A DNA stretch of 64,000 nt. Source: Planctomycetia bacterium (GTDB lineage Bacteria; Planctomycetota; JAJSAM01; JAJVHW01). Both the position numbers and the translations under genes were made by a program. Shown here one piece after another: positions 3,983 through 54,979 of this stretch. The stretch covers positions 25,780 to 89,779 of the forward strand of contig JANNHP010000312.1 in assembly GCA_031404455.1 (NCBI GenBank). Direction: 5' to 3'. The notes under the pieces are model-generated. The model saw only the letters and a list, made by a program, of their open reading frames with translations. It had not been told where the DNA came from and ran no database searches. The first letter of the stretch is position 1. Each line of letters starts with the position of its first letter.

Positions 3983-4494
3983 GCCGCACCTCCGCTCTCG
4001 CCGCCCTGGCCGAGGTCGCCCGCCAGCTTGGCGAGGTCCTCCTGGTTCTTCAGCACGCGCTCGAGGAGAGAGTCGAGCTCGTCGGAGCGGTCCGCCTTCG
4101 AGAGGAGGTCGCGCAGCTTGTTGCGCGTCTCGATGAGCTTGCGCAGCGGCTCGACCTGGTTCGCGACGCGCGCGGGCTCGAAGTCCGCCATCGAGCCGAA
4201 CTTCAGCTCGACGCCGATCTCGCTGCCGTCCTTCTGGAGCGTGTTCTCGACCTTCATCTTGAGACCGGGCGTCATCTTCGACATCACGTCGTCGAAGTTG
4301 TCGCGGTCGATCTGCACGAACTTGCGGTCCTTCAGCGGCTTGAGCGCCGTCGTCGGGTCGCCCGAGAAGTCGCCCATCACGCCGACGACGAAGGGCAGCG
4401 TCTTCTCGACCATCGCCCCTTCGGTCTCGACTTCGTAGCTCAGGTGGACGCGCGGCTTCCTGACGCGTCCGAGCTTGTCATGGATACTCGCCAT
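3979..4494 (-). CDS. tssB: T6SS contractile sheath small subunit TssB/VipA
   Basis: 171 aa. Conserved TssB core ([27 protein letters not shown]). Immediately upstream of tssC. Confidence 0.9.
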
Positions 4495-4621
4495 CGGTCG
4501 GTTCCTCCCTCGGTCGCGTTTCGGTGCGGGGCATGCTGCCCGGGTTCGCGGGCGGCCCGCACGCGGTTCGGCATCCTAATGTCCGGCTTCCGCGATCCAC
4601 AAGCAGCGTCTTCAGCCCCCG

Positions 4622-5719: not shown

Positions 5720-5756
5720 GGGAGTGACCTCCGGAACTGTGGGCCTGGCACGCGTC

Positions 5757-7283: not shown

Positions 7284-7324
7284 CGTCTAGTCCTCGCTCC
7301 GCGGACGGCGGGATGACTTCTGCG

Positions 7325-10300: not shown

Positions 10301-11389
10301 GCTCGTGACGTAGAAGCCCCGGTAGAGCGGCGTCTCCTGGTAGACGTTCGGCTCGAAGAGGCGAGCCATCATGCGCCCGAAGGGTTCGCCGAGTGCTGCG
10401 AGCTCGTCGGGGAATCCGAACGCCGCGGGGCGATCGCGCAGCTTCGCGGCACCGACCATGAGCGGCCTGAGTTCGCGCAGCTTGTGGATCAGGTCCGTCC
10501 AGCGCCGTTCGAAGAGCGACTGGTTGAACCGCGCGCCCTCGTCCTGCTCCACCGTCCAGCCCATCATCTGCTGGCGAGTGGCGGCGTCCGCGTTGCCGAA
10601 GAACTCCACGAACCCGCCGACGAGGTCGACCTTCGTCAGCACGATCCACACGGGGAAGTTCACGCCGAGGTGGTCGATGAGCTCGTCGAGCCGCGCGCGG
10701 ATGCGGCGCGCCTCCATCTCCTGCTCGGCGTCGCTGCGCTCGATGATGTCCGCGGCGGGGATGGCCACGATCACGCCGTTGATCGGCGCGGCCGTGCGGT
10801 GGCGGCGCACGAGGTCGAGGAACTGCGCCCATTCGTCCGCGTGCTCGTCGGACATGTAGCGCCCGGCGGTGTCGAGGAACACGCCGACGTTCGAGAACCA
10901 CCAGTCGCAGTTGCGCGTGCCCTGCAGGCCCTTGATCGCCGCGTCGCCGACCGGAAAATCGATTCCCGACTGGCGCAGGAGCGTGCTCTTGCCGCTCGCC
11001 GGCGCGCCCATGATCACGTACCACGGCAGCATCGCGAGCGCGCGGCTGCCGCCGCCGCCGACGGCAGTGCCCTTCAGCTTCCCGACGCTCTCCTTCCAGT
11101 TCTTGCGCAGCGCCTCGATCTCGCCCTTCTGGTCGTAGCGGCCGGTGCCCGACGCGAGGCTGTCCTCGAGCCGGCCCGCTTTCATGCGGCGGCGCATCCA
11201 TCCGGCGAGGAGCACGCCGAGGACCACGAGCAGCGCGACGACGAAGACGACGACGGTCCAGAAGACGCACCGGGCGGGCGGCAGGCCGACGGCGTTCGTG
11301 ATCCCGTACGCGATCCCGCCGAGGAGCAGCGGCACGATGAGCAGCGCGAGCCGCGGCAGGAGTTCGCGGAACTTGCCCGGCGCGCTCAC
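7325..11389 (-). CDS. tssM: T6SS membrane subunit TssM/IcmF
   Basis: 1354 aa. N-terminal TM helices, Walker A GAPASGKST. IcmF-like size and position between tssL and tagF. Confidence 0.9.
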   Translation of the reverse strand: MSAPGKFRELLPRLALLIVPLLLGGIAYGITNAVGLPPARCVFWTVVVFVVALLVVLGVLLAGWMRRRMKAGRLEDSLASGTGRYDQKGEIEALRKNWKESVGKLKGTAVGGGGSRALAMLPWYVIMGAPASGKSTLLRQSGIDFPVGDAAIKGLQGTRNCDWWFSNVGVFLDTAGRYMSDEHADEWAQFLDLVRRHRTAAPINGVIVAIPAADIIERSDAEQEMEARRIRARLDELIDHLGVNFPVWIVLTKVDLVGGFVEFFGNADAATRQQMMGWTVEQDEGARFNQSLFERRWTDLIHKLRELRPLMVGAAKLRDRPAAFGFPDELAALGEPFGRMMARLFEPNVYQETPLYRGFYVTSATQQGTPLQRAASRVRQLLGAPAVDADAQGVLIKNAYFVKDLMRERIVLDHGMTWTTQHEIERGKLKRLGMNLTASSLGVFGFLAVLAAGTCARHDMEAVEASLRDSRKADESVLARCEGLFAQQRQATFGVWKNLGLSLPLPLQKEMADREAGLYRTEIVGALLESRRKAIETADVTGAGGLAPLVAAYRDYLVTASALKAIAAAKTAPPAATKSPPPEPPKEGAAPPDPNDLPPGVLSPDEMAALTARAEELVAAGILPKAGTDTPERKIARLLSVAWRNGGIDETAAKAMESVDAAFDARVADYLRRVRAALDSRSAISAGTSAQIDSRRTAFLKECAHADLLLQSANVPKEKLRRELEAIAATLATEPAPAGPGPAASADLSILGSVAESLKALADAKVRTDAQLAAIEGYAAVRQYAQAEADRVKSGAAAPQAEASGRMLTALDTLAKATAELLAEGPTSPAERRTWQVTIGMSEATIALDATFRSKQGPWAQTVVQQLLPLVEGSTAETLQRHPVIRLGEALRLERMLEEFVTDPDGFASYAQRIETARRPPPGIADLDKDLAQLAAPLDLGAKNRLVSEPLLKAIEARVADSFGVVVTTAESQWSQRIRAETADTGSWRSCIDAWADPAGAIGRLAALVTQNWGEDRVSRFDADTAGDSGAAAIWRAKLAKPIARYRAFVAGVASGSRAADELRKCAGRDVSEASLAEFATKLGRSAASPAWRQPGAVDRLPEDGPFGDAKAALVAALAAGEEDLVTRLRDWFNRNWSLERQRIEAALKSPSPESTSSASQAMARMRGAFVVFFGDSLADTPGRRLELPPEFVGRFEQAAATLGPGAFDEITVTIECVAVPTSQSDKGFPLVEVEYKQQGKAPATEKWLPNAAKQLSFTFAPNKGEYFTIRMRNERTNDSKTFRAWTTPDCVVAALTSGLGTSSDALDWEGTGEFKGDHAKFRLVTANADRIRRLNAAPEDTRLPETCVRILPR

Positions 11390-12132
11390 TTCTTCTCACC
11401 GCTCTCAGGCGCGGACCGCTCGGCCGCGAGCATCTCGCCGATCCTCGTGCCCTGAGCGCTCCAGAGGACGAACCAGAGCCCGACCGCCAGGGCGGCGGAG
11501 AGCGGGATCGGCCACCACCAGAACCAGCCCTTGCCGAGGATGCGTCCCTTCGGCGCGTCGCGGTACGCCTCGCTCCAGACGCGGCGGCGCGCGGCCTCGG
11601 GGCCCTGCGGCCAGAGCAGCGCGACGATTCCGTTCGCGAGGGCGTCGAGCTCGCCGGGGTTCGCACTGCGGTACCTGCCCCGGAACCCGAGCCGGAGACA
11701 TGTGTAGAAGACCTCGAGCGCTCCGAGCACTTGCTCACGCAGCGCGGGATCCTGGACCCCCGCGAGCTGTTGCCGCAGACGGTTGACGCGCTCGAAGAAC
11801 TCCTGGCCCGCGAACGACGTGTTGAAGTGCCGGAGCTCCAGGAGGAACCGGCTCCACTGCTGCGCGTGGTCCCAGTCGCTGTGCAGGCCGAGGTCGTCGG
11901 CGAGCGCCACGACCGCGTACTTCGCCTGCGTGTAGATGTTCCAGTCGAGTCCCGACGACCGCGCCGACATGTCGGCGCCGGCGAGGAGTTCCTCGAGCGT
12001 CCGGTGGAACTGCGCCGGCTGCAGCCGGGCGCGCGTCGATTCGCTGTGGAACGCGGCGATCGCGAGGAAGAAGCCTCGGAAGCAGCCGGTCAGGGCCGCC
12101 CGGGAGGATCCCGCCTCAGCGGCCGAAGACAA
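11386..12132 (-). CDS. tssL: T6SS membrane subunit TssL (DotU/ImpK family)
   Basis: 248 aa. DotU-like cytoplasmic domain plus C-terminal TM helix (WWPIPLSAALAVGLWFVLW). Upstream of tssM with a 4-nt overlap. Confidence 0.8.
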   Translation of the reverse strand: MSSAAEAGSSRAALTGCFRGFFLAIAAFHSESTRARLQPAQFHRTLEELLAGADMSARSSGLDWNIYTQAKYAVVALADDLGLHSDWDHAQQWSRFLLELRHFNTSFAGQEFFERVNRLRQQLAGVQDPALREQVLGALEVFYTCLRLGFRGRYRSANPGELDALANGIVALLWPQGPEAARRRVWSEAYRDAPKGRILGKGWFWWWPIPLSAALAVGLWFVLWSAQGTRIGEMLAAERSAPESGEKK

Positions 12133-13540
12133 CGTACGCCTCCATGCCGAGGTCGGGTGCCGCGCCGCCGGGGACGAGCCCCTCGGTCGCGAAGTGGATG
12201 ACGAGCGTGCGCTCCGAGATCACCGCGCGCCACTCGTCCTGCGCCTCCGGACGCGCGGACGCGTCGTTCTGGAGCCGGTAGTAGACGGCGCCGCTGCGGC
12301 TCGGCAGCTCGCGGGGCTTCGGGCACGGCGCGACGGGCACGCCGTACTTCCTCTGCGCGACGATGTTCGCGATGCGCGTGGCCGCGCCGACCTTCACGTG
12401 TCCGCTGCGGTAGAAGTCGCGCTCCGCGCCGGGCGGGTCGGGGCTCGCGAACGCGAGGTAGACCTGGTTGCGGGCGTTCAGGAGTGCCGGGTCGAGTCCC
12501 GAGGCACCGACGGCGAGTCCGCCGATGCCGAGGTCGCCGCGGGTCAGGGGGACCCGGCGGAAGTTCGCGGCGAGCTGGTCGGCGCGGAGCAGCGCGAGCA
12601 AGGGGCGCGCGACCAGGTCGAAGCACTCGCCGATGTTCGCGTGGTCGTAGATCGGGACGTTCGGCATGGAGGCGCCCGCGCAGAGCGTGGCGAACTGCCC
12701 GAGCAGGCTGCAGAGCAGGTGGTAGACGTCGTAGGGGTGCGGTCGTCCGCCGTCCGCCGCTTCGCGGAGCCAGGGCAGCGCCGCACGCAGGATCTGCAGC
12801 TTCCAGAGCTGGATCACCTCCGCCTCGGTCGCGTTGCCCGCCACCATGTCGGCGACCGACGCGCCGCCCGCGAGGTCCGCCGCCTTGCCGGCGGCCTCTC
12901 CGAAGATCTCCTTCACGAGCGCGTGGACGCCGGACGCCGCGGAGAGCCGCAGCGACGGCGGAGCCCACGCGGCGGAGAGGCGCGACGGCGGCAGGCCGAC
13001 CGCGGGCGCCACGAGCTGCGCGATCGGCACCGTCTCGAAACCGTCGGTCCGGTCGCCGTCGAAGAGCAGGCGCGCGTTCAGCCTGAGGAAGTGGACGTCC
13101 TGGAGGTTGCGGCCGGTCACGAGGTCGGCCACGGTCTCCGTCGCGCGCACGTAGCGCGGCGGATCGGTGTCGTCCTCGTGCGTCTCGCGCACGTTGGGCT
13201 CGTGGTCGCGCAGGCGCCGGGCGCCGACGTGGACCGTGAGCGGGCTCGGCGCGCCCTTCGGGATCTCGCGCGGCGCCAGCGACGCGTTGCCGCCCCCGCG
13301 CGCGTCGAACACGAGAGCCTCACCGCCCGGCAGCATCACCTCGAGCGAACGGACCTCGAAGAACCCGCGTTCGAGCTGGAGCGGGTCCACGTCGATCTCG
13401 GCGACGCCGAAGCGGTACGGCGCGGCGTAGCCGAGCTGGCGCGCGCCGAGCGCCATCGCCCCGTGGGCCTGCTGCTGCATGTGGTGCGGCAGGAGGAAGA
13501 GACCTTCCTCCCAGAGGACACCCCTCGGGATTGGACACAT
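12116..13540 (-). CDS. tssK: T6SS baseplate subunit TssK (ImpJ/VasE family)
   Basis: 474 aa. N-terminus VLWEEGLFLLPHHMQQQ matches the TssK family start. Position between tssJ and tssL. Confidence 0.85.
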   Translation of the reverse strand: MCPIPRGVLWEEGLFLLPHHMQQQAHGAMALGARQLGYAAPYRFGVAEIDVDPLQLERGFFEVRSLEVMLPGGEALVFDARGGGNASLAPREIPKGAPSPLTVHVGARRLRDHEPNVRETHEDDTDPPRYVRATETVADLVTGRNLQDVHFLRLNARLLFDGDRTDGFETVPIAQLVAPAVGLPPSRLSAAWAPPSLRLSAASGVHALVKEIFGEAAGKAADLAGGASVADMVAGNATEAEVIQLWKLQILRAALPWLREAADGGRPHPYDVYHLLCSLLGQFATLCAGASMPNVPIYDHANIGECFDLVARPLLALLRADQLAANFRRVPLTRGDLGIGGLAVGASGLDPALLNARNQVYLAFASPDPPGAERDFYRSGHVKVGAATRIANIVAQRKYGVPVAPCPKPRELPSRSGAVYYRLQNDASARPEAQDEWRAVISERTLVIHFATEGLVPGGAAPDLGMEAYVVFGR

Positions 13541-38349: not shown

Positions 38350-39471
38350 TCAGCCGGCGAGGACGCGTTCGTAGAGAGCGACGTACCGGTCCACCACGGC
38401 GGGCCCCGCGAATCGCGCAACGGCGTCGGCGCGACCGGACTCTCCCATGCGACGCCGCAGCCCCTCGTCGCCCAGCAACCTCACCGCGCCCGCGGCGGCG
38501 CCCTCCACGTCGCCCACCTCGACGAGCAGGCCCGTCCGCCCGCTCTGCACGACCTCGGGCAGGCCGCCCGAATCTGTGCCGATCACCGGCACGCCGCAGG
38601 CGAGCGCCTCGAGCGCCGAGAGGCCGAACGATTCGTGCTCGCTCGGCAGGATGAAGAGATCCGACGCCGCGTACACGCGCTCCACGTCCTCCTGCTCGCC
38701 GAGGAAGTGGACGCGCTCCGAAACTCCCGCCGCCGCCGCGGCGCGTTCGGCGGTCGCGATCTCGGGACCGTCGCCGGCGAGGAGGAGGCGCGCCGGCACC
38801 TTCGCAGCCGTCCGCGCGAAGATGTCGATCACGTCCCTGACGCGCTTCACCTCGCGGAAGTTCGACACGTGCGACAGCACCTTCTCGCCCGGCGGGACGA
38901 GACACTTCCTGAGCGGGCTCTCCGCGCGCGGCTGGAAGCGCTCCACGTCGACGAAGTTCGGCAGCACCTCGATCGCGCGCGTCGGCTGGAAGAACCGGAG
39001 CGTCTCGCCGCGCAGCCACTCCGACACCGTCGTCACAGCGTCGCTGCGCTCGATGCCGTAGCGCGTCGGCTGGAAGTACGCGCGGTCGAGACCGACGATC
39101 GTGATGTCCGTGCCGTGCAGCGTGGTGACGATCTTCGGGCGCTTCGTTCCGAGCATGTCGCGCGCGAGCAGCGCCGAGACGGCGTGCGGGATCGCGTAGT
39201 GCACGTGCAGCACGTCGAGCTGGCGCGATTCAGCCACGTCGCGCAGGAGCGACGCGAGGGCGAGGTCGTAGGGCGGGTACTTGAAGAGCGGATACGGCGT
39301 GACCTGCACGCGGTGGAACGACACGTTCGCGTGGTAGCCGGTCAGCCGCGCGGGCCGCGCGTAACTGACGAAGTGGACCTCGTGCCCGCGCGACGCCATC
39401 GCGAGTCCGAGTTCGGTGGCGATCGCTCCGGAGCCGCCGTACGTCGGATAGCAGCAGATTCCGATGCGCAC
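38350..39471 (-). CDS. bshA: N-acetyl-alpha-D-glucosaminyl L-malate synthase BshA (GT4 glycosyltransferase)
   Basis: 373 aa. N-terminus MRIGICCYPTYGGSGAIATELGLAMASRGHEVHFVS closely matches BshA. GT4 C-terminal EX7E region. Confidence 0.8.
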   Translation of the reverse strand: MRIGICCYPTYGGSGAIATELGLAMASRGHEVHFVSYARPARLTGYHANVSFHRVQVTPYPLFKYPPYDLALASLLRDVAESRQLDVLHVHYAIPHAVSALLARDMLGTKRPKIVTTLHGTDITIVGLDRAYFQPTRYGIERSDAVTTVSEWLRGETLRFFQPTRAIEVLPNFVDVERFQPRAESPLRKCLVPPGEKVLSHVSNFREVKRVRDVIDIFARTAAKVPARLLLAGDGPEIATAERAAAAAGVSERVHFLGEQEDVERVYAASDLFILPSEHESFGLSALEALACGVPVIGTDSGGLPEVVQSGRTGLLVEVGDVEGAAAGAVRLLGDEGLRRRMGESGRADAVARFAGPAVVDRYVALYERVLAG

Positions 39472-39472
39472 G

Positions 39473-40192
39473 TCAGACGCTCCCGCCGAAAAGCGCCGCC
39501 ACGTCGGTGACGGCGAGCGCGCCCATCGGCACGAGCGGTTCGCCGAACTCGACGCCCGCGCGGCGTCCCCACACTCGCGCGCGCGCCTCGATGCGCGAGA
39601 AGAAGTCCGGCCGTGCGATCAGGGTCGGGAACTCGCGCTTCGCCTTCGGGTCGTGGAGCTGGCTCGCGAAGCACCGCGCGAGCTCAAGGCGCCGCTTCCA
39701 CACGGGCGTGACGTCGACGACGACCGCGTGCGTCTCCTCGTCGTGCATGAAGTAGTGGAAGACGCGCGCGGGACGGTACGGCCTGCCCGGTGCGTCGAAG
39801 TTCTTCATGCCCGCCGGATAGATCGATTCGGCGACCGCGCGTCCCGCGGCGGCATGGTCGGGATGAAGGTCGCGCGGCAGCGGCGCGAGCACGATCTTCG
39901 GCCGGTGCCTGCGGATCGCGGCGACGATCGCGATGCGAAGGTCCATCGACGCCTCGAGTTCCGTGTCCGGGAACTCCAGCGTCTCGCGCAGCGCGAGCTT
40001 CGCGAGCTTCGACGCGCGGCGCGCCTCGGCGGCGCGCGTGCTGCGCGTCCCGCGGCTCCCCTTCTCACCCGCGGTCAGATCGAGCACGCCGACGCGGAGG
40101 CCCGCGCCGGTGAGGCGCAGGATCGTGCCGCCGCACCCGAGCTCCACGTCATCGGGGTGCGCGCCGACGGCGAGGACATCGAGCCGTTTCAC
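39473..40192 (-). CDS. bshB: LmbE-family deacetylase BshB
   Basis: LmbE/PIG-L motif (LAVGAHPDDVELGCGGT). GTG start overlapping the bshC stop. Confidence 0.7.
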   Translation of the reverse strand: MKRLDVLAVGAHPDDVELGCGGTILRLTGAGLRVGVLDLTAGEKGSRGTRSTRAAEARRASKLAKLALRETLEFPDTELEASMDLRIAIVAAIRRHRPKIVLAPLPRDLHPDHAAAGRAVAESIYPAGMKNFDAPGRPYRPARVFHYFMHDEETHAVVVDVTPVWKRRLELARCFASQLHDPKAKREFPTLIARPDFFSRIEARARVWGRRAGVEFGEPLVPMGALAVTDVAALFGGSV

Positions 40193-41670
40193 GATGGGGA
40201 CTCCTCTCCCGGTCCGGGCGCACCCACGCGGAACATTACGGCCTGGGAGCCCGCCGCGTCCGCCGCAGCGAGCGTAGCGATGTGCTCTGCGAGGGCACCG
40301 TGGCCCATCTGCGCGAGCCACGGAAGCGGAGACACGCTCCTATCCTGCGGTTCGCCGCCGGGGAAGAGCGAGGCGAGGAGCTTCGAGCGTCGCGAATCGG
40401 CCGCCAGCGCCCGCTCCTTCGCTTCGCGCCGAAGCGCGTCGCCGTACGCCTCGACGCCATGCACCAGCGCCGCGTGCCGCCGCTGCACGGCCGCGGATCC
40501 CTCTGACGGCGCCTTCGCGACGAGTTCGCGGAGCGCTGCGACTTCGGCGGGCTCGGGCGCGTCGTCGCGCGCGTCGAGGTCTCTCAGTCCGGCTTCCGAA
40601 AGACTTGCGGGATCGATGCCCAGCGCCCGGCAGCGGCGTTCGTCGCCCGCGGTGAAGAAGAGCCAGGACGTGCGCGCGACGAGCGCCGGCTGCGGCACTC
40701 CGAGGAAAGCGTGCAGCTCCGCGAGCCGCTCGCAGTAGCGAATCTCCGACGGACCGCAGACCTGCGCCGCGACGGGAAGGGCGACGTCCTGAGCGAGCAC
40801 GCGCGTGACGACGTTCCACGAGAACGCTGAGTCGGGGAGCGAGCGCATCTCGTCCGTCGAGAGAATCGAGCCGTCCTCGACGCGCCACTCGTTGCCGGCG
40901 CGCTCGACCTTCAGCCGCCGCCCCGTGTTCTCGACGAGGAAGAAGAGTTCGTCGCGAGCGAGTTCGATCGACGGGGGCTGGCCGAGCGCCGCGGCGATCT
41001 CCTCCGCGGCGCGGATACGCGCCGCGAACTCGCCGGGACGCTCGATCTCGAAGTCCACTACCGGCCTCGCGAACGAGCGCAGCGTCTGCGGCTCGACGAC
41101 GACGAGTCCGTGCGGCCCGAGGACGCGCAGGAGGATGCGCGAGAACCACGACCCCATCGTGTCGTCCGCCGAGGGCTCGATCGCCGCGAGGAGATCGTCG
41201 CGCGACGGGCCCTGCGCAAGCCGCGCCCGCAATGTGCCCACGAGGGCGGTCGCCTCGGCGGGCACCAGCACGTGCGAGAGCATGGTGCGGTCGCCGGCGA
41301 GCGGGACGCGCAGCGTCTCGACGCCGTCGCCGAGCGCCATCGCCACGTGATCGCATTCCGCGTGGTCGTGATCCTCGGACGCGTTCCAGAACACGGCGAC
41401 CGCGGGAACGCCGTGGTCCGCGGAGATCCTCCGCGCGAGCGCGATGGCGTGACACGCCTTCGCCCAGACGAGTCCCGGCCCCGCGAGGAGCACGGGCTGC
41501 TGTCCTGCGACGACGACGACCGAGCGGCGCTCTGCGATCCGGCGCGCCGCGGCGACGGATTCGGACGGAGCGCCGAGCGCCTCGAGGCGCGCCGCGATCG
41601 CCGCCGAGACCTCCGCCCGAGGCATCTCGCGCGCCGACGCGCGGCGGACGGCCGTCTCGATCTGACTCAT
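40189..41670 (-). CDS. bshC: Bacillithiol biosynthesis cysteine-adding enzyme BshC
   Basis: 493 aa from internal Met (MSQIET). BshC/YllA motifs (VVVAGQQPVLLAGPGLVWAKACHAIALAR, FWNASEDHDHAE). Confidence 0.7.
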   Translation of the reverse strand: MSQIETAVRRASAREMPRAEVSAAIAARLEALGAPSESVAAARRIAERRSVVVVAGQQPVLLAGPGLVWAKACHAIALARRISADHGVPAVAVFWNASEDHDHAECDHVAMALGDGVETLRVPLAGDRTMLSHVLVPAEATALVGTLRARLAQGPSRDDLLAAIEPSADDTMGSWFSRILLRVLGPHGLVVVEPQTLRSFARPVVDFEIERPGEFAARIRAAEEIAAALGQPPSIELARDELFFLVENTGRRLKVERAGNEWRVEDGSILSTDEMRSLPDSAFSWNVVTRVLAQDVALPVAAQVCGPSEIRYCERLAELHAFLGVPQPALVARTSWLFFTAGDERRCRALGIDPASLSEAGLRDLDARDDAPEPAEVAALRELVAKAPSEGSAAVQRRHAALVHGVEAYGDALRREAKERALAADSRRSKLLASLFPGGEPQDRSVSPLPWLAQMGHGALAEHIATLAAADAAGSQAVMFRVGAPGPGEESPS

Positions 41671-42404
41671 TGCGCCACCCCCGCGAGCACCAGGCGGTCC
41701 GCGTCGTCGCTCCAGACGCCGCCGGCGAGGTCGCCGTGGACGGAGACGGCGCGCAGGCCCGCCGCCGCGAGCATCGCCGTCATCTCCTCCCTGCCGTAGA
41801 GGCGCACCGATTCCTTCCAGCGGTCCACGCGCTTGCCGTCGGCGCCGCGCACCTCGACCTCCTTCTCCACGCGCCCGTCCTTGATGCAGCGGTGCTCGCG
41901 GACGGTGCGATCGCCCATCGTGCGCTCGGACGACGCCACGAGCGTCGCCGCGACGCGCGGCGCGCTGAGGAAGTCGAGGACGAACGTGCCGCCCGGGCGC
42001 AGCACGCGGCGGACCTCCGAGAGGTGCGCGCGGTCGCCTTCGTCGTCGAAGTAGCCGAACGACGTGAAGAGGGAGACAACGTGCGCGAAGGATCCGCCCG
42101 CGAACGGAAGGTGCCGGAAGTCCGCTCGCACGCAACGCGCGCCGCCGCGCCGCCGCGCCTCGGCGAGGAGTTCCTCCGAGTAGTCGATGGCGAAGACGTC
42201 CGCGCCGAGCGCCGCGAAGGCGCGCGCGTGGCGCCCCGCTCCGCAGCCGGCGTCGAGGAGCCGCGCGCCCGGCGCGACGCCGAGCAGCGACGCGACGAAC
42301 TTCGCCTCGCGTTCCGCGGAGGCGTCGTCGCGGTGCGCGTAGACGTCGAGGTAGGCGCGGCGGAACGCCTTCGTCCACCATTCGGCGCCCGCTCGAGCGG
42401 TCAC
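41667..42404 (-). CDS. Class I SAM-dependent methyltransferase
   Basis: SAM-binding motif I (LLDAGCGAGRHA) and post-I acidic residue. GTG start overlapping the pyrF stop. Confidence 0.75.
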   Translation of the reverse strand: MTARAGAEWWTKAFRRAYLDVYAHRDDASAEREAKFVASLLGVAPGARLLDAGCGAGRHARAFAALGADVFAIDYSEELLAEARRRGGARCVRADFRHLPFAGGSFAHVVSLFTSFGYFDDEGDRAHLSEVRRVLRPGGTFVLDFLSAPRVAATLVASSERTMGDRTVREHRCIKDGRVEKEVEVRGADGKRVDRWKESVRLYGREEMTAMLAAAGLRAVSVHGDLAGGVWSDDADRLVLAGVAQ

Positions 42405-43315
42405 GCGGCTCTCGGGCCTCCGGTCGCGGCGGCGAGGGCGTCGCTCATCTCGTAGACGGCCGCGGCGACGGAGTCGCGCCAGCGCTTGTCGCCGAAACGC
42501 TCCGCGTGCGCGCCCGCGCGGAACGCGAACGTGAGGCCGCGAGAGCTGTTGACGATGGCGCCCGAGCCGTCGGGAAGGAACGCCTTCGCGCTGTCCTGCG
42601 CGGTCGCGCCCTGGGCGCCGTAGCCGGGGACGAGCAGCGGCGTCCTTGGCATCGCCGCGCGAAGCTCCGAGAGCTCGTCGGGGAACGTCGCGCCCGTGAC
42701 CGCGCCGACCGAGGAGAGTCCGCACCTGCCGACGAGCGAAGGGTCGGCGCCGATCTCCTTCACCATCTTCGCCACGCGGCGCGAGAGCGGCGCGTCGCCG
42801 GTTGAGAGGTCCTGCAGGTCGGTCGATCCCGGGTTGCTCGTCTTCACGAGGACGAAGAGCCCCTTGCCCGCGGCGCGGCAGTGCGTGAGGTACGGCTCGA
42901 GCGAGTCGCGGCCCATGTACGGATTGACGGTGATCGCGTCGGCGCCGATGAGTCCGAAGTGCCCCTCGGCGTACGCCTCGGCGGTCGAGCCGATGTCGCC
43001 GCGCTTCACGTCGGCGATGACGAGGAGGCCCTTCTCCTGTGCCGCGATCACCGTCTCGTGGTAGGCGCGGAAGCCCGCGGCGCCGAGCGCCTCGAAGAAC
43101 GCGATCTGCGGCTTGACCACGGGGACGATCGGCGCGATCACGGTGATCAGCTCGCGTGCCCAGTTCGAGATGGCGAGCGCCTGCTCGTTCGGCGTGTCAC
43201 GCTTCGGTTTGAACTCCGCGGGGAGGAGGTTCACGCGCGGGTCGATCCCGACGCACACGGCCGAGCGCTTCTCGCGGCACGCGTTCGTCAGGCGGTCGGC
43301 GAAGTTGGTGGCCAT
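42401..43315 (-). CDS. pyrF: Orotidine 5-phosphate decarboxylase (type 2)
   Basis: 304 aa. Type-2 OMPDC motifs (VCVGIDPR, KPQIAFFE, VIADVKRGDIGST). Confidence 0.85.
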   Translation of the reverse strand: MATNFADRLTNACREKRSAVCVGIDPRVNLLPAEFKPKRDTPNEQALAISNWARELITVIAPIVPVVKPQIAFFEALGAAGFRAYHETVIAAQEKGLLVIADVKRGDIGSTAEAYAEGHFGLIGADAITVNPYMGRDSLEPYLTHCRAAGKGLFVLVKTSNPGSTDLQDLSTGDAPLSRRVAKMVKEIGADPSLVGRCGLSSVGAVTGATFPDELSELRAAMPRTPLLVPGYGAQGATAQDSAKAFLPDGSGAIVNSSRGLTFAFRAGAHAERFGDKRWRDSVAAAVYEMSDALAAATGGPRAA

Positions 43316-43321
43316 GGCGCG

Positions 43322-43942
43322 TCACACCATCGCCGCGAGGGCGTCCGCGAGGAAGTTCGCGAGGAGCGCCGGGCCGCTCGGCGTGAGGTAGGACTCGGGG
43401 TGGAACTGGACGCCCTCGATCGGCAGTTCGCGGTGCCGGAGGCCCATCAGCTCCCCCGAAGCGGTGCGCGCGGTCGCGACGAGTTCCTCCGGCAACGGTT
43501 CGGCGACGACGAGGGAGTGGTATCGCATGGCGACGAGCGGACTCGGGAGACCCCTGAGCACGCCGCGGCCGTCGTGGAGGACGTCGCTCGTCTTCCCGTG
43601 CACGGGCGAGGGCGCGCGGACGACGCTCCCCCCGAACGCGACTCCGATCGCCTGGTGCCCGAGACACACGCCGAGGAGAGGGATGCGCAGCCCGGCGGCC
43701 GCGCGGACGAGGCCGACGGAGATCCCGGCCTCGCGCGGCGTGCACGGCCCCGGGGAGAGGACGATCGCGGAGGGCTCGAGCGCGAGCGCGCCGGCGACGG
43801 ACACGGCGTCGTTGCGCCGCACCATCACCTCGGCGCCGAGCGCCGCGAGCGTCTGCACGAGGTTCCAGGCGAACGAGTCGTAGTTGTCGACGATGAGCAC
43901 GCGCACGCCGCGACCTTCGCACGCCGCGGCACGTGTCCGCAA
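43322..43942 (-). CDS. trpG: Anthranilate/aminodeoxychorismate synthase glutamine amidotransferase component
   Basis: Class I GATase ([28 protein letters not shown]). A GTG start near 43906 is possible. Confidence 0.85.
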
Positions 43943-43996
43943 GTGCGGGGAGTCGGGGGGCGTGACGAACTCCCTCGCGCGCGCCGACGCGTCGCC

Positions 43997-46195
43997 TCAG
44001 GCCTGCTCGGCGGGCAGCGGCGCGCCGAGCGGCAGCGTGAACGCGAAGATGCTGCCGCCGCTGCGCGCCGGCTCGTACCAGATCGTCCCGCCCTGGCGCT
44101 CGAGGATCGCGCGCGCCATCGGGAGACCGAGCCCGAGGCCCGGCGGCTTGTCGGTGAGGACGTCGCCGAGCTGCTTGAACTTGTCAAAGATCACCGCGCG
44201 CAGGTGTTCGGGGATGCCGGCGCCGCGATCGCGCACGTCGATGCGCGCAGCGTCGCCGACGTGGCGGATCGCTACGTGGACCTCCGTGCCCTCGGGTGCG
44301 AACTTCGCCGCGTTCGAGAGGAGCGCGTCGAACACGCGCGCGATCCACCGGGCGTCGGCGCGCGCCGGAGCCATGCCCTCGTCCACGAGCAGACGGACCG
44401 AGATTCCGCGCGCGACGAAGCTCGGCCGGTTGCGCTGGTACGACGCGACGAGGCACTCCTTCATGTCGAGCGTGCCCGCGGTCATGTCGACCTTGCCCGC
44501 CTCGATCCGCGAGAGGTCGAGGAGCGTCTGGACCATCTCCGTCAGGCGCGCCGCCTCGCGGTGGATGATCGTCGAGAACTCCGTGCGCTCCGCCGCGGAC
44601 GCGGGCGCCGAGTCGCCGGCGATCCCGGCGAGGATCTCCGCGAAGCTGGAGATGGACGTGAGCGGCGTCAGGAGCTCGTGGCTCATCGACGAGAGGAAGT
44701 CGTCCTTCAGCCGGTCGAGCACCTGCAGGTCGCGGCACGCCTGCTCGAGTTCGCGCGTCCTCTCGGCGACCTTGCGCTCGAGGTCACGGTTCAGCGTCTC
44801 GACGCGCGCGAAGAGCCGCGAGTTCTCGAGCGCCACCGCCGCCTGCGACGCGATCGCGGTGAGGAACCTGAGGCGCATCGCGACGTCGTGGTCGAGCGAC
44901 CCGGTCGGCAGGTACGCGACGATCGCGCCGAGGACCTCGGTCTGGTGGACGAGCGGCGCCACGAGCGCGAGCAGCGGCGCCTCCGCGGCGCAACCCGGCG
45001 CCGGGTCGGAGCCGTCCCGGGAGAGCTCGATCTGGAAGGCGCGGCGTTCGAGCACCCGCTGGAGGATGCCCGGATCGGTCCGTCCGCCGCGGGCCAGCGG
45101 GTCCCTGCTGAAGCCCTGCACCATGCGTTCGACGAGCGAGTCGCCGCCGTCGCCGACGAGGAGGACGCTGCCGAGCGACGAGCCGACCGTCCGGAGCGAC
45201 GCGTCGAGGATGCGCTTGAGGAGGCGGTCGCCGTTCAGCTCGGAGGAGACGACGACGCCGGTCTCGTGGAGGGCGGCGAGCTGCCTCACGTGGTCGCCGA
45301 GGCGGTGCTTCACCTCGTTCAGCTCGGAGACGAGCTCCGCCGACGCGATGTGGGTGTCGACCGCGCGCTCGAGCAGCTTCTCGACATCGGGCGTGTCGTC
45401 GTCGCCGTCCTTCGCGACCTCGATGATCGTGTCGGTCCGCTGCATGTCGGGGCCCGCGCCGACGAGCTCGGCGCTCGCCCACACGACACCCGTGGTCGGC
45501 TCGGGCGACGGGACGGGCGGTGTCGGCGCGGAGCGCGCCGTGGCGGACCTGCCGAGCGCCGCGAGCCGCTCGCGCAGCACCTCGCGGGCGGCGGCGGGGT
45601 CGCCGATGCGGTACTCGCGCGCGATGTTCGACATCATCCCCGAGCAGACCTCGGTGAACGCCTCGAACACTCCGTTGCCCGTCGTCGCGATCGTCTGGAA
45701 GTCGGGAACCCCGCGCGAGTTGAGCGTCGTCCGGAGCCGCGCCGCGGGCGCGGCTCCCGGCGCGTCGCGCTTGTTGTACTGGAGCACGAGCGGGACGCTC
45801 TCGGGGTCGAGACTGTTCGCCTCGAGGTTCTCGCGCAGCGTGACGAGCGACTTCACGTTGTCCTCGAACGCCTCGGAGCGCGAGTCGGCGACGAAGATGA
45901 CCGCGTCGGCGCCGCGCAGCACGTAGCGGCGCGTCAGGTTGTACTTCACCTGCCCCGGCACGGTGAACGCCTGGAGCTTCACCTGGTAGCCCGAGATCGA
46001 GCCGAGCGCGATCGGCAGGAAGTCGAAGAAGAGCGTGCGGTCGCCCTCGGTGTTGAGCGACACGAGCTCGATCCGCCGCTCCGGGTCGATGACCCGGTGG
46101 ACGTATTTCAGGCTCGTCGTCTTGCCGGAGAGTGCGGTGCCGTAATAGACGATCTTCGCGTTGATCGTCTTGTCCCGAACGTTGATCAGGCTCAT
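43997..46195 (-). CDS. Fusion protein: MglA-like Ras-family GTPase + GAF domain + histidine kinase (HisKA/HATPase_c)
   Basis: 732 aa. Residues 1-190 resemble MglA (INAKIVYYGTALSGKTTSL P-loop, TEGDRTLFFDF, TVPGQ, YNKRD). A GAF-like middle region. HisKA H-box (SMSHELLTPLTSI) and N/G1/G2 boxes (LLSNAAKFAP, DRGAGIP, GLGLGLPMA). Confidence 0.8.
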   Translation of the reverse strand: MSLINVRDKTINAKIVYYGTALSGKTTSLKYVHRVIDPERRIELVSLNTEGDRTLFFDFLPIALGSISGYQVKLQAFTVPGQVKYNLTRRYVLRGADAVIFVADSRSEAFEDNVKSLVTLRENLEANSLDPESVPLVLQYNKRDAPGAAPAARLRTTLNSRGVPDFQTIATTGNGVFEAFTEVCSGMMSNIAREYRIGDPAAAREVLRERLAALGRSATARSAPTPPVPSPEPTTGVVWASAELVGAGPDMQRTDTIIEVAKDGDDDTPDVEKLLERAVDTHIASAELVSELNEVKHRLGDHVRQLAALHETGVVVSSELNGDRLLKRILDASLRTVGSSLGSVLLVGDGGDSLVERMVQGFSRDPLARGGRTDPGILQRVLERRAFQIELSRDGSDPAPGCAAEAPLLALVAPLVHQTEVLGAIVAYLPTGSLDHDVAMRLRFLTAIASQAAVALENSRLFARVETLNRDLERKVAERTRELEQACRDLQVLDRLKDDFLSSMSHELLTPLTSISSFAEILAGIAGDSAPASAAERTEFSTIIHREAARLTEMVQTLLDLSRIEAGKVDMTAGTLDMKECLVASYQRNRPSFVARGISVRLLVDEGMAPARADARWIARVFDALLSNAAKFAPEGTEVHVAIRHVGDAARIDVRDRGAGIPEHLRAVIFDKFKQLGDVLTDKPPGLGLGLPMARAILERQGGTIWYEPARSGGSIFAFTLPLGAPLPAEQA

Positions 46196-46294
46196 GCCAC
46201 CTCGGTGCGGGCTGGAAACGACTCCTCCTCATCGTCCCGCCGCACCCCCCGGCGTTAGCCGGACGGACCGGCTCCCGCGAGCTAGCTTCCTCGC

Positions 46295-47475: not shown

Positions 47476-47746
47476 ATCCGCGCGGCTTCCGGCGCGGTCG
47501 CGATTCGGCGGCTACCTTGGAAGCGAGGATTCGCCTAGCTTTCGTGGCGAAGGACGGGGTGTCACGCGGCTTTTGACACGCGCAGCGCGAGGGCTAGAAT
47601 TCTCCACTGTCGGCGGCGCGACGGCGGCGCGCGGCCCCTCGACGAGAGGGTCCCCGCTCCGGTGTCCAGCGGCCGTTCTTCATCTGAACGAACGTGATTC
47701 GCTCAATGGGAGACGCGGCCCTCTCGGCCGGTCTTCGGGAGAGGCC

Positions 47747-53718: not shown

Positions 53719-53914
53719 GAGGGTGTGAAGAAACCCCACGCGAGCGTCGGTTGCCGCCTGGCGAGCCTGCTGCAAGGCGATCGCGCGAAGGCAACTCCGC
53801 TGAGTTTCCGAGCGCGAGCCACGCAGCAGCAGGCCGCCAGGGCGCAATCCCCCGTCGCTCAGTTCGGTGCGCACGAGTCGCGCCGGCGCCGCGCGGGGTC
53901 TCTTCACACCCTCT
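53718..53914. repeat. 197-bp palindromic element bounded by 20-bp inverted repeats (AGAGGGTGTGAAGAAACCCC / GGGGTCTCTTCACACCCTCT) immediately after the gyrB stop
   Basis: Terminal inverted repeats match 19/20. The interior also folds as a long imperfect hairpin (GCCTGCTGC...GCAGCAGGC, CCGCCTGGCG...CGCCAGGGCG). The 63-aa ORF inside is not credible. Confidence 0.5.
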
Positions 53915-54025
53915 GAGGCCGGGGACCCCGTCGCGCCCGCTCGGGGCGAGGCCGCCGGTGCGGTTTCTTCCCGGCCGGCGCGTCTCGACTTGAGACGCCC
54001 GGTGCCGATTGCCGATGGTTGCGGC

Positions 54026-54979
54026 ATGTACCTCGCTCACCTGGAGAAGCTGCTCAGGACCCGCCTCTCCGACATCCTCGTGGAAGAGGGCATCCTCGAG
54101 CGCTCGCGCGTGGAAGAGGCGCAGGCGGACCAGGACGACACGGGCAAGCAGCTCGGCGAGATCCTGGTCGAGCAGGAGGTCCTGACGGACTACGACCTCG
54201 CGAAGATCGTCACGACCCACTACGCGCTGCCGTACCTCGACCTCGCGGGCTACTCGGTGCGCCGCGAGCTGATGGAGCTGCTCCCGCCCGACTTCTGCGC
54301 CAAGAACTCGATGCTCCCGCTCGACCAGTTCGGGAGCATGCTCACGCTCGCGGTGGCGGAGATGCCGTCGTCCGAGATGATCGACGAGGTCGTGAAGGCG
54401 ACGCAGCTCACGCCGATCCTCTTCGTCGCCACGCGGCGCGGGATGCTGAACGTGATCGAAGAGGAGCGCAAGCGCGGCGCCGCCCGGCCGGCGAAGGCGG
54501 CGGCGAAGACGTCCGCGACCGCGCAGCCGACGACGGCGAGCGTCGATGCTGCTCCGAGCGCCGTCGCGGCCGCGCCCGCGGGCGACCCGACCCAGGAATC
54601 CGACCTCCCCGAGTTCGACCTCCCCACCGTCCCGCTCAAGCTGGCCGGTTCGATGGCCCGGAACAAGCCGGGTGCCGCGCCCGCGGCCAAGCCTGCTCCG
54701 GTCGGGAACAAGAAGTCCCCCGCTGCGGCGTTGCGCTGGATGGACACCGCGGCGAAGAGCGACGCCCCGAAGACCGGCGAAGCGCCGAAGCCGGTGGAGA
54801 CACCGAAGCCGAACGTCTCCAAGTACGGCGGCACTGCTGCCGCTCCGCGGCCGACGGCTCCCGCGGCGGCGCCCGCCGGGAAGCCTCCCGTGCCTGCGGC
54901 GAAGCCCGCGGGGGACGCTTCGTGGCAGTCGATGTTCGACGTCGCCGACGAAGCCGTGAAGAAGGTCAAGCCGAACTAG
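54026..54979 (+). CDS. Stand-alone MshEN/T2SSE N-terminal-like domain protein with Ala/Pro/Lys-rich tail
   Basis: N-terminal ~140 aa resemble the GspE N-terminal (MshEN) domain (LSDILVEEGILERSRVEEAQ, LGEILVEQEVLTDYDLAKIV). The rest is low complexity. Confidence 0.55.
   Translation: MYLAHLEKLLRTRLSDILVEEGILERSRVEEAQADQDDTGKQLGEILVEQEVLTDYDLAKIVTTHYALPYLDLAGYSVRRELMELLPPDFCAKNSMLPLDQFGSMLTLAVAEMPSSEMIDEVVKATQLTPILFVATRRGMLNVIEEERKRGAARPAKAAAKTSATAQPTTASVDAAPSAVAAAPAGDPTQESDLPEFDLPTVPLKLAGSMARNKPGAAPAAKPAPVGNKKSPAAALRWMDTAAKSDAPKTGEAPKPVETPKPNVSKYGGTAAAPRPTAPAAAPAGKPPVPAAKPAGDASWQSMFDVADEAVKKVKPN

Follow-up and report, generated by a model that had tools for sequence, protein, structure and literature searches.

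The stretch of DNA analysed here (the window, 64 kb) comes from a member of the Planctomycetia, and all positions below refer to it. On the minus strand, 43997..46195 form a single ORF of 732 codons plus a TGA stop in the ORF listing. On the basis of this listing, Pfam, homologs and GC3, it is a complete gene for an MglA-GAF-HisKA-HATPase_c fusion of 732 aa, in which an MglA-type G domain is followed by an amphipathic helix, a tether, a putative coiled-coil helix, the GAF domain, a signalling helix, and the HisKA and HATPase_c domains. The ATG at 46195 is preceded, at a distance of 4 nt, by a GAGG motif resembling a Shine-Dalgarno sequence (46200..46203, minus strand), and this start is supported by the alignment of the N-terminus with MglA from residue 1.

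In the Pfam search, GAF, HisKA and HATPase_c all score above the gathering score, and Gtr1_RagA gives only a weak, sub-threshold match. Together with the single ORF and more than 100 homologs, this bears out the preliminary description of the locus, made from the sequence alone, according to which a GTPase, a GAF domain and a complete HisKA/HATPase_c transmitter are present in one polypeptide. The motifs quoted in that description, which gave no strand, were all recovered, with the sequences given, on translating their coordinates. No transmembrane segment is found in the protein by hydropathy. A membrane sensor was rejected, as the sole hydropathy peak (aa 408–426) falls on β strands of the GAF domain.

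It is important to consider whether the gene could be an artefact, that is, whether a frameshift or an assembly error has joined a stand-alone mglA to the gene of a GAF histidine kinase, or whether the N-terminal part is a generic P-loop NTPase without the MglA switch residues. Both concerns had been raised together with the original description. One relative, P0044 with 906 aa, appears to have been read through into the GATase gene downstream, so that gene-calling fusions do occasionally occur at the locus. However, there are more than 100 full-length homologs of the same architecture from independent assemblies, with 28–96% identity, of which 107 were used for the residue conservation given below; the window protein is also identical to an entry of the public collection (P0001). 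Furthermore, GC3 is 0.90–1.00 per 60-codon block, and since it is uniform throughout, linker included, no frame change is indicated. A frameshift or mis-assembly is ruled out by these homologs and the uniform GC3, and a generic P-loop NTPase by an MglA-specific match at E ca 1e-55 that is colinear from residue 1 and by MglA signature residues that are all invariant in the 107 homologs. The probability of an artefact of either kind is thus practically negligible.

The MglA-type G domain

The Ras-like G domain comprises aa 1–195 (45611..46195, minus strand), as identified by phmmer against the PDB and by Foldseek. The best phmmer matches are MglA structures (6hjh, 6h17 and 5ymx with E ca 4e-55, and 3t12 with 3e-51), and the next ones, Arl3 and KRas, reach only ca 1e-5. 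Over the first ca 190 residues, the alignments with the MglA proteins of M. xanthus (E=3.6e-55) and T. thermophilus (2.8e-51) are free of gaps, and the identity of the G domain to the former is 47% over the aligned columns. Foldseek matches the domain to the MglA-GTPγS structure 6h17 with a TM score of 0.93 and an rmsd of 1.7 Å, and the N-terminal β0 strand is present in the AF2 model of the G domain.

All the motifs lie on the minus strand. The P-loop GTALSGKT (aa 19–26, 46118..46141), located by translation, has Ala21 at the position of Gly12 in Ras and Gly21 in MglA. Translation and conservation identify the switch I/arginine-finger loop TEGDRTLFFDF with R53 and T54 (aa 49–59, 46019..46051), the G3 motif TVPGQ with the catalytic Gln82 (aa 78–82, 45950..45964), which is the Group 1 MglA signature, and the G4 motif NKRD for guanine specificity (aa 141–144, 45764..45775). 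G24, K25, D52, R53, T54, T78–Q82, N141, K142 and D144 are invariant in 107 of the 107 homologs, as are F56, F57 and D58 of switch I, while T26 is found in at least 90% of them; Ala170 in the G5 region is likewise invariant among the homologs. Column entropy is lower in the G domain than in any other segment, which makes it the most conserved part of the protein, more so than the kinase core. The loop 52–56 has a pLDDT below 50 in the isolated G-domain model, presumably as expected of a mobile switch; the role of the MglA switch residues R53/T54 has been described (PMC6876712).

According to the published classification, Group 1 MglA proteins have TVPGQ as their G3 motif instead of DxxGQ, Groups 2–5 have GTPGQ, and Group 1 has in addition an intrinsic arginine finger next to the G2 threonine (PMC4316618). 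The present domain shows the G1–G5 motifs, TVPGQ and the R53–T54 arginine finger, but departs from Group 1 in not being a single domain of ca 195 aa, in having no mglB nearby and in lacking Gly at P-loop position 21. The E values, the TM score, TVPGQ and the intrinsic arginine finger firmly place the N-terminal ca 190 residues in the MglA family, as proposed originally. With the catalytic residues R53, T54 and Q82 present and invariant in the 107 homologs, the residue set for GTP binding and hydrolysis is complete, and both activities can be predicted for the domain. A Roco (Roc-COR) protein was also considered and rejected, since Pfam Roc scores 14.1 bits against a cut-off of 27 and COR gives no match.

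The connecting segments and the kinase part

Following α5 of the G domain, there is an extra amphipathic helix (aa 200–222, 45530..45598, minus strand), identified by AF2 and by its conserved hydrophobic face. When aa 1–225 are modelled alone (pTM 0.89), this helix has pLDDT values of 91–95, and its hydrophobic face is conserved at positions 203/207/211/214, with L211 at 90%. Next comes a disordered Pro/Ala-rich tether (aa 226–266, 45398..45520, minus strand; pLDDT below 50 for 226–254 and 263–266), which is the least conserved segment, with an alignment occupancy of 0.66. The long conserved helix preceding the GAF domain in the AF2 model (aa 271–318, 45242..45385, minus strand) has a mean entropy of 1.83, is better conserved than the GAF domain itself and probably forms a dimeric coiled coil.

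The GAF domain (aa 323–457, 44825..45229, minus strand) is supported by Pfam and by an α/β fold at 322–434 in the AF2 model. The matches to GAF_2 (1.9e-9; 38.3 bits against a cut-off of 28.6, covering profile positions 5–136 of 136), GAF (4.3e-6) and GAF_3 (5.8e-6) are all above the gathering score. D365, P414 and Y428 are conserved in the domain, and no NKFDE-type motif is seen by eye in the fusion sequence. The signalling helix connecting GAF to DHp (aa 458–496, 44708..44824, minus strand), with a mean entropy of 1.64, is part of a continuous helix 435–525 in the AF2 model. The model of the full-length monomer has a pTM of 0.59.

The HisKA/DHp domain (aa 497–567, 44495..44707, minus strand) is matched by Pfam with 1.3e-15 and 57.6 bits, compared to a cut-off of 26.9. 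The phospho-acceptor His506 is located in SMSHELLTPL (503–512), its codon being 44678–44680. H506, E507 and T510 occur in at least 90% of the homologs, P511 is invariant, and the HExxT phosphatase motif is present. The HATPase_c domain (aa 614–723, 44027..44356, minus strand; Pfam 4.9e-23, 82.1 bits against a cut-off of 26.4) contains the N box with N628, the G1 box D656-x-G658-x-G660, F673 and the G2 box GLGLGL; N628, D656, G658, G660 and F673 are invariant in the 107 homologs. In a Foldseek search, the kinase part matches HK853 with a TM score of 0.83, and partial matches to phytochrome and LOV kinases are obtained. Pfam and the translation thus confirm the complete transmitter, with the H-box histidine in SMSHELLTPL, and as the H, N, G1, F and G2 boxes are all kept, the protein is predicted to be an active kinase.

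Gene neighbourhood

Downstream of the fusion gene, a block of genes on the same strand spans 38350..43942. Pfam identifies these as GATase (43322–43942), pyrF (42401–43315), a SAM methyltransferase (41667–42428), bshC (40189–41676), bshB/PIG-L (39473–40321) and bshA/GT4 (38350–39471), all on the minus strand. The gap from the stop of the fusion gene to the GATase gene is 54 nt and contains no terminator-like site, and the block is possibly an operon. The gene order is identical in the relatives L001 and L002 (55% and 44% identity, respectively), and in the Planctomycetota clade the fusion gene heads the block, divergent from nifS-like-dnaA-dnaN-dciA-gyrB. The window is assigned to the Planctomycetota by its named relatives and by a GyrB 69% identical to that of a Planctomycetes MAG. 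In the acidobacterial L003, the gene is instead flanked by an RND efflux operon on one side and a menaquinone-related gene on the other. Since the synteny holds only in the Planctomycetota clade, we take it as context and not as an indication of mechanism. The preliminary description also envisaged a regulator of polarity or motility. This role finds no support, as the context is a conserved housekeeping block beside dnaA and no motility, pilus or RomR-like genes are linked in any of the contexts examined, which limits the immediate impact of the fusion.

MglB, response regulators and position 21

No MglB-like ORF is found in the 64-kb window, either by phmmer --max with a PDB-validated MglB probe or with an iterated MglB profile, and no receiver-like ORF is found there by phmmer --max with four receiver probes or with an iterated receiver profile; an MglA probe, used as positive control for the phmmer searches, was recovered. 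The lack of an adjacent mglB and of an adjacent response regulator, noted originally for the immediate surroundings, thus extends to the whole window. There is no mglB within 10 kb of any GAF-HK relative, and an mglB-like ORF lies within 2.5 kb in 32 of 35 stand-alone mglA controls, compared to 1 of 20 long fusions. In a published survey, 390 of 449 MglAs have a coupled MglB (Roadblock/LC7) within a few genes (PMC4316618).

Position 21, the equivalent of Gly12 in Ras, is the only G-domain column that separates fused from stand-alone MglA. Among 111 GAF-HK fusions it is Ala in 83, Pro in 20 and Gly in 8, that is, Ala or Pro in 103 (93%), while it is Gly in 130 of 140 stand-alone MglAs (93%). 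Gly21 of MglA is reported to co-occur with mglB (PMC3983030), and A/S21 has been linked to the absence of MglB. A change at this position in MglA or Ras is known to slow hydrolysis and to blunt GAP action, the G21V variant of MglA having a 7-fold lower kcat; the residue here is Ala, which is milder than Val. The change from Gly21 to Ala suggests that the G domain is not part of a canonical MglB-driven cycle, and we infer a loss of MglB coupling from the class-specific A/P21 in combination with the lack of a linked mglB. Hydrolysis is probably still under selection, since R53 and Q82 are invariant, and the domain may cycle with a GAP or GEF encoded elsewhere, outside the 64 kb.

As to the phosphotransfer partner, no receiver gene is found near the Planctomycetota relatives L001, L002 and L004. 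Some other relatives have adjacent receiver genes, namely a single-domain REC (L007), a REC protein (L005) and a REC-GGDEF (L011), and in L029, L037 and L047 the receiver is fused. Sister architectures include MglA-PAS-HK-REC hybrids and MglA-HisKA-HATPase_c, and L010 and L011 are MglA-kinase variants without GAF. The change at position 21, the several types of MglA-kinase fusion and the relatives with adjacent response regulators are all points that did not appear in the preliminary description.

Comparison with known systems

With the Group 1 MglA of M. xanthus and T. thermophilus, the G domain shares TVPGQ, the intrinsic Arg53 next to Thr54, NKxD and the β0 strand. Compared to these proteins, the fusion has the extra amphipathic helix and ca 530 further residues including the kinase, it has Ala21, and it lacks an adjacent mglB and a motility-gene context. 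The MglA of Bdellovibrio bacteriovorus is similar in having a non-Gly residue at position 21 (Ser21), in having lost mglB coupling and in keeping the other catalytic residues, but it is a stand-alone protein whose action at the invasive pole involves RomR and a TPR partner.

The Streptomyces conservon resembles the fusion in that an MglA-family GTPase is functionally coupled to a histidine kinase. There, however, four proteins are involved, the histidine kinase CvnA, the Roadblock protein CvnB, CvnC and the MglA-like GTPase CvnD. The conservon GTPase belongs to Group 2, with GTPGQ and without the arginine finger, whereas the fusion has the Group 1 signature. The conservon kinase is a membrane protein that has HAMP and, at the C-terminus, an LPxR motif, whereas the fusion is soluble and its C-terminus, FTLPLGAPLPAEQA, has no LPxR; nor is there a Roadblock or CvnC gene near it. 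Membership of the actinobacterial conservons was rejected on these grounds (one polypeptide, TVPGQ with arginine finger, no transmembrane segment, no Roadblock, no LPxR).

Cytoplasmic GAF/PAS-HisKA kinases, of the HK853 type or with a bacteriophytochrome-like stalk, share the GAF domain, the continuous signalling helix, DHp and CA with the fusion, but none of those compared has an additional N-terminal Ras-like GTPase. The Rag/Gtr GTPases offer an analogy only, in that a G domain is followed by a dimerising α/β sandwich in the same chain; in their case the sandwich is a Roadblock domain, while here an MglA-type G domain is followed by GAF and then the kinase. No description of an MglA-kinase fusion was found in the searchable literature, a coverage that does not extend to subscription journals and database-only annotations.

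Possible mechanisms

We now turn our attention to how the protein might work. Our tentative preference is for a soluble, presumably dimeric HisKA sensor kinase that takes its input from an MglA switch operating independently of a GAP. In such a mechanism, the G domain would work without MglB, and the amphipathic helix packed on α5 may hold one nucleotide state in cis. Carried by the flexible tether of ca 40 residues, the G domain would in one nucleotide state dock on the coiled-coil/GAF/DHp stalk and thereby shift the kinase/phosphatase balance of the transmitter, and the phosphoryl group would be passed to a response regulator encoded elsewhere in the genome. The GTP/GDP state, optionally in combination with a GAF ligand, would in this way be converted into a two-component output. 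That MglA is the input and not the output is argued by its N-terminal location, where sensor domains sit, by the sister hybrids and by the receiver genes adjacent in relatives. A point against the switch-kinase model is that it does not account for the conserved location of the gene, next to dnaA and to pyrF, GATase and the bacillithiol genes. We consider it rather unlikely that the MglA domain gates the kinase in the specific sense of being freed by G21A/P and the in-cis helix, reading GTP/GDP or an exchange factor and docking reversibly. Helix 200–222 would in that case fill the allosteric α5/β2–β3 pocket that is normally taken by the C-terminal helix of MglB, and the placement among dnaA, nucleotide and thiol genes would hint at a checkpoint for growth state or guanine nucleotides in the Planctomycetota.

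Instead of acting allosterically, the MglA domain could be an address tag, bringing the kinase to MglA effectors or landmarks according to the bound nucleotide, an option that we judge unlikely. Possible landmarks include the cell pole, machinery for pili or secretion, and complexes resembling RomR/RomX, and signalling would then be spatially confined. The characterised function of MglA-GTP is indeed the binding of polar and effector proteins, and the long disordered tether would suit such fishing-line recruitment as well as allostery. In addition, among 100 C-terminally extended MglAs sampled, ca 80 have a tail without a catalytic domain, so that many extended MglAs are probably adaptor-like. 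The strong conservation of the pre-GAF and signalling helices, however, is what would be expected of a signal path through the stalk, and the lack of linked motility, pilus or RomR-like genes noted above also speaks against a localisation role. The localisation and allosteric models are not mutually exclusive.

The flow of information could also be the reverse, with the GAF/kinase part sensing the signal and controlling the GTPase as an in-cis GAP, GEF or platform, so that the G domain becomes the output. GAF and Roadblock domains share the profilin-like α/β sandwich fold class, and a dimeric GAF would here take the platform role that Roadblock domains have for MglA and for the Rag GTPases, which carry Roadblock in cis. 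A precedent is provided by the conservon, which combines a kinase with a Roadblock protein and an MglA homolog and has no response regulator, the GTPase being the posited output; no response regulator is linked in the window's clade. We nevertheless regard this scenario as improbable, since the conserved H box, HExxT and ATP-binding boxes indicate selection for phosphotransfer to a receiver, sister proteins have a C-terminal receiver or adjacent receiver genes, and the pairing of MglA with a kinase without GAF in L010 and L011 means that GAF is not an obligatory partner. Another option considered was that the G21A/P domain does not switch at all but is a constitutive GTP-binding or dimerisation/stability module, with GAF as the real sensor; at most, the G domain would then report bulk GTP availability. 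This would fit the class-specific loss of Gly21 and the precedent of Bdellovibrio MglA with S21, which has been proposed to be permanently GTP-bound after the loss of mglB. However, the residues R53, T54 and Q82, whose role is in hydrolysis and not in binding, are invariant in the 107 sequences, the G domain is conserved above the kinase core, and Gly is kept in 8 of the 111 members, all of which makes a permanently GTP-bound domain decidedly improbable.

Returning to the fusion as a kinase with an MglA switch as its input, bacteria usually connect their Ras-like GTPases to two-component systems only via separate proteins, examples being RomR, FrzX/Z and the conservon. The covalent fusion constitutes a Rosetta-stone link, the MglA switch having repeatedly been wired into histidine kinases (GAF-HK, PAS-HK-REC and HK alone). 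As one soluble protein, it offers a simple in-vitro system for the control of a kinase by the nucleotide state of a small GTPase, and it allows one to ask how MglA functions without MglB. The replacement of Gly21 by Ala or Pro could also be used as a sequence rule to predict MglB-independent MglAs.

Finally, the fusion is conserved in two phyla, Acidobacteriota and uncultured Planctomycetota, and its architecture is under purifying selection in both. An ortholog is also encoded by the cultured Thermotomaculum hydrothermale (TTHT_0653, P0107). The family points to a large, as yet uncharted class of MglA proteins with C-terminal extensions: ca 1,800 representative clusters match aa 1–320, and among the best 150, almost every protein exceeds 300 aa. 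Fused or multidomain MglA proteins are not mentioned in the published survey of prokaryotic small GTPases, which took single-domain members of the Ras superfamily as its basis. A neighbour-joining tree of the G domains, a weak method that does not settle monophyly, contains at least two pure fusion clades, with 27 Planctomycetota and 12 Acidobacteriota members. The fused G domains of the two phyla, which are 47% identical, show no greater similarity to one another than to stand-alone MglAs, with which they share 47–53% identity.

Identity and conservation of the fusion protein

The gene at 43997–46195 (−) is a single open reading frame of 732 codons, and the proposal that it encodes an MglA GTPase, a GAF domain and a histidine kinase in one polypeptide is confirmed. 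All sequence motifs quoted in the preliminary description were found on translating the coordinates. In a Pfam search, HATPase_c (aa 614–723, 4.9e-23), HisKA (aa 497–567, 1.3e-15) and GAF_2/GAF/GAF_3 (aa 323–457, 1.9e-9 and weaker) all score above their gathering scores, while the N-terminus gives only weak Arf/Ras matches. NCBIfam yields only generic histidine-kinase similarity, well under all equivalog cut-offs. In a comparison of aa 1–215 with all PDB chains, M. xanthus MglA matches without gaps (1–189 on 1–189, E=3.6e-55) and T. thermophilus MglA follows at 2.8e-51; the next best chains are Arl3 and KRas, at ca 1e-5. This sequence comparison settles the N-terminal domain as MglA-like, as had been claimed. 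GC3 is 0.90–1.00 in each 60-codon block, the linker included (G+C of the window ca 71%). A GAGG motif is located 5' of the ATG, and the protein aligns with MglA from residue 1.

Among 5.8 billion proteins searched there is an exact copy (P0001, on a 96-kb NCBI contig), besides more than 100 clusters that agree in length and Pfam set and range from ca 28% to 96% identity. As these come from independent assemblies (JGI, ENA, NCBI and Logan), the possibility that the fusion is an artefact is ruled out. The named hosts are Planctomycetes/Planctomycetota MAGs, Acidobacteriota/Holophagae MAGs and the cultured Thermotomaculum hydrothermale (TTHT_0653). Public annotations read 'GAF domain-containing protein' or 'signal transduction histidine kinase/SRP receptor subunit beta'. 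One relative of 906 aa (P0044) is apparently joined in frame to the downstream GATase (Pfam GATase, Peptidase_C26, GAF and HisKA), which is either genuine read-through or an error of gene calling or sequencing in that assembly.

In a 107-sequence alignment, G24, K25 and T27, the switch-region residues D52, R53, T54, F56, F57 and D58, the stretch T78, V79, P80, G81 and Q82, and N141, K142, D144 and A170 are all invariant. The same is true for N628, D656, G658, G660 and F673 of the kinase, and H506, E507 and T510 are present in at least 90% of the sequences. Conservation is highest in the G domain, where column entropy averages 1.31, against 1.64 for DHp, 2.03 for CA and 2.42 for GAF.

An AlphaFold2 model built from this alignment (mean pLDDT 84, pTM 0.59) predicts a Ras-like fold that includes the N-terminal strand typical of MglA alone, with alpha5 at aa 176–195, and then an additional helix (aa 200–222), a disordered Pro/Ala-rich stretch (aa 226–266), a long helix (aa 271–318) and an alpha/beta GAF fold (aa 322–434). 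A single continuous helix (aa 435–525) starts at the GAF domain, includes the signalling helix and continues as DHp alpha1, followed by DHp alpha2 (aa 531–565) and the CA domain (aa 574–723). In Foldseek searches against the PDB, the N-terminus matches MglA-GTPgammaS (6h17, TM 0.93, 1.7 A) and the C-terminus HK853-type kinases (TM 0.83). No transmembrane segment was found by hydropathy, the sole peak falling on GAF strands. When aa 1–225 are modelled in isolation (pTM 0.89), helix 200–220 keeps a pLDDT of 91–95, which indicates that it packs on the G domain; only the arginine-finger loop 52–56 falls below 50. In this extra helix, residues 203/207/211/214 form a conserved hydrophobic face, with L211 at 90%.

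An MglA without a linked mglB

In Group 1 MglAs the G3 motif is TVPGQ and the G2 threonine has an intrinsic arginine beside it; Groups 2–5 have GTPGQ and lack the arginine (PMC4316618). The fused G domain carries both Group 1 features invariantly. That survey is built around single-domain Ras-superfamily GTPases, and no mention of fused MglA proteins was found in it.

The absence of mglB and of a response regulator next to the gene, noted in the preliminary description, holds for the whole window. Among all ORFs of at least 50 aa in the 64 kb, neither an MglB-like one (M. xanthus MglB probe, first validated against PDB 6h5b) nor a receiver-like one (four receiver-domain probes) was detected; an MglA positive control scored 1e-56. 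We collected 80 loci by scanning species-representative genomes, iterated an MglB profile on them and classed them by protein length after the G domain. An MglB-like ORF lies within 2.5 kb in 32/35 cases for stand-alone mglA (tail <60 aa), compared with 8/29 for intermediate tails (60–249 aa) and 1/20 for long ones (>=250 aa), and none was found at the scanned GAF-HK loci. Planctomycetota loci of other mglA genes do have mglB (e.g. L032, L064, L071), which shows that the module occurs in this phylum.

A column-by-column comparison of 111 fused and 140 stand-alone G domains revealed only one class-separating column, position 21, the equivalent of Ras G12. It is Ala in 83, Pro in 20 and Gly in 8 of the fusions, and Gly in 130/140 stand-alone MglAs. 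In Thermus MglA, G21V lowers kcat 7-fold. Gly21 co-occurs with mglB, and A/S21 MglAs tend to lack MglB (PMC3983030). Given this published meaning, the substitution and the lack of a linked mglB, the fused domain looks like an MglB-independent MglA.

Possible mechanism

What the analysis shows directly is the set of domains and their conservation, the lack of a linked mglB, the substitution of G21, and the presence of the tether and of the helical stalk. We infer a dimeric soluble kinase whose tethered G domain would, in one nucleotide state, engage the stalk or the transmitter and set the kinase/phosphatase balance, independently of MglB. According to published work, the C-terminal helix of MglB binds in an alpha5/beta2-beta3 pocket, thereby stabilising the GTP-competent state, and in Rag GTPases a Roadblock domain is present in cis. 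These precedents make it attractive that the extra helix 200–222 could take the part of the MglB helix in cis and that the dimeric GAF could serve as a platform.

Other roles were also considered. The G domain could be a locked structural GTP-binding domain, and a permanent GTP-bound state has been proposed for Bdellovibrio MglA (Ser21, no MglB; PMC3983030). That R53 and Q82 are invariant argues, however, that selection on GTP hydrolysis by the fused domain persists. The GTPase could also be the output, as proposed for the Streptomyces conservon. We favour MglA as the input module of genuine two-component kinases, since it is N-terminal and receivers are fused or adjacent in relatives: L029, L037 and L047 (Holophaga) encode MglA-PAS-HK-Response_reg hybrids, L007 has a single-domain receiver (145 aa) directly upstream, L005 a receiver protein and an NtrC-type regulator upstream, and L011 a directly adjacent downstream REC-GGDEF. 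Finally, MglA could be a localisation tag. As for the suggested role as a polarity/motility regulator, no context gene points there, the neighbours being housekeeping genes.

Each part of the fusion is of a known kind, and domain shuffling is common in sensor kinases. In the literature searched, we found no account of a fusion between MglA and a histidine kinase. The family links Ras-like GTPases to two-component signalling in a way that is clear and conserved and has apparently not been described before, and it has a testable sequence signature.

Related proteins and genomic surroundings

The Holophaga-type hybrids (ca 790 aa; L029 10001–12364, L037 494–2863, L047 10001–12373) combine MglA, PAS, a HATPase_c kinase core and a C-terminal receiver, that is, a complete phosphorelay module with a small GTPase domain at its head. 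L013 encodes MglA-PAS-HATPase_c, L011 (Planctomycetota) and L010 (Vicinamibacteria) MglA-HisKA-HATPase_c without GAF, and L022, L015, L026 and L074 MglA with unrecognised C-termini. When 1.84 billion representatives were searched exhaustively with aa 1–320, 1,804 clusters matched at E <=1e-30; in the best 150, nearly all have MglA at residues 1–~200 of 300–890-aa proteins. In a sample of 100 such proteins, GAF occurs in 14 and HisKA with HATPase_c in 9, and ca 80% have a tail without a Pfam family. Loci L009–L083 and proteins P0241–P0377 represent a large MglA class with C-terminal extensions of 100–700 aa, many of them Pro-rich, and mostly without adjacent mglB. In P0095 (710 aa), a domain matching the N-terminal MglA part (ca 29% of the query) at 59% identity is joined to an RsbW-type HATPase_c_2, and the neighbouring match P0042 (562 aa) is named RsbU-like phosphatase by JGI; both hint at a possible connection of MglA domains to partner-switching (anti-sigma) modules as well.

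The fusion gene is the first of seven genes on one strand (38350–46195, −) that overlap or are separated by short gaps, being followed by a trpG/pabA-like GATase (54 nt past the stop), pyrF, a SAM methyltransferase and the bacillithiol genes bshC, bshB and bshA. Divergently upstream are a class-V aminotransferase, dnaA, dnaN, gyrB and, directly after gyrB, a protein (53867–54979, +) with MshEN, a c-di-GMP-binding domain. The gene order, including the MshEN position, is identical in relatives with 55% and 44% kinase identity (L001 and L002, on ca 2-Mb contigs), always beside the dnaA-dnaN-dciA-gyrB origin region; it differs around the acidobacterial fusion relative. By contig-length fingerprints, at least 11 assemblies have a GyrB homolog and a fusion homolog on one contig. 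The GyrB closest to that of the window among named ones (69% identity) is from a Planctomycetota MAG, as are several fusion homologs, which makes an uncultured lineage of this phylum the most likely origin of the window.

A near-consensus sigma-70-type promoter, TTGACA-16-TAGAAT (47573–47600, +; 11/12, 0.0 expected in shuffles), is found a short way 5' of the dnaA coding region. Because it overlaps the listed TTG start and coding-type GC3 begins around 47760, the true dnaA start is probably further downstream. Elsewhere in the window, a T6SS cluster (3979–12219, −) is present in this apparently uncultured Planctomycetota genome, with VipA/TssB (3979–4575, 4e-60), DotU/TssL (11386–12219, 5e-33) and, between them, an ORF of 1357 aa (7325–11395) that is probably TssM.
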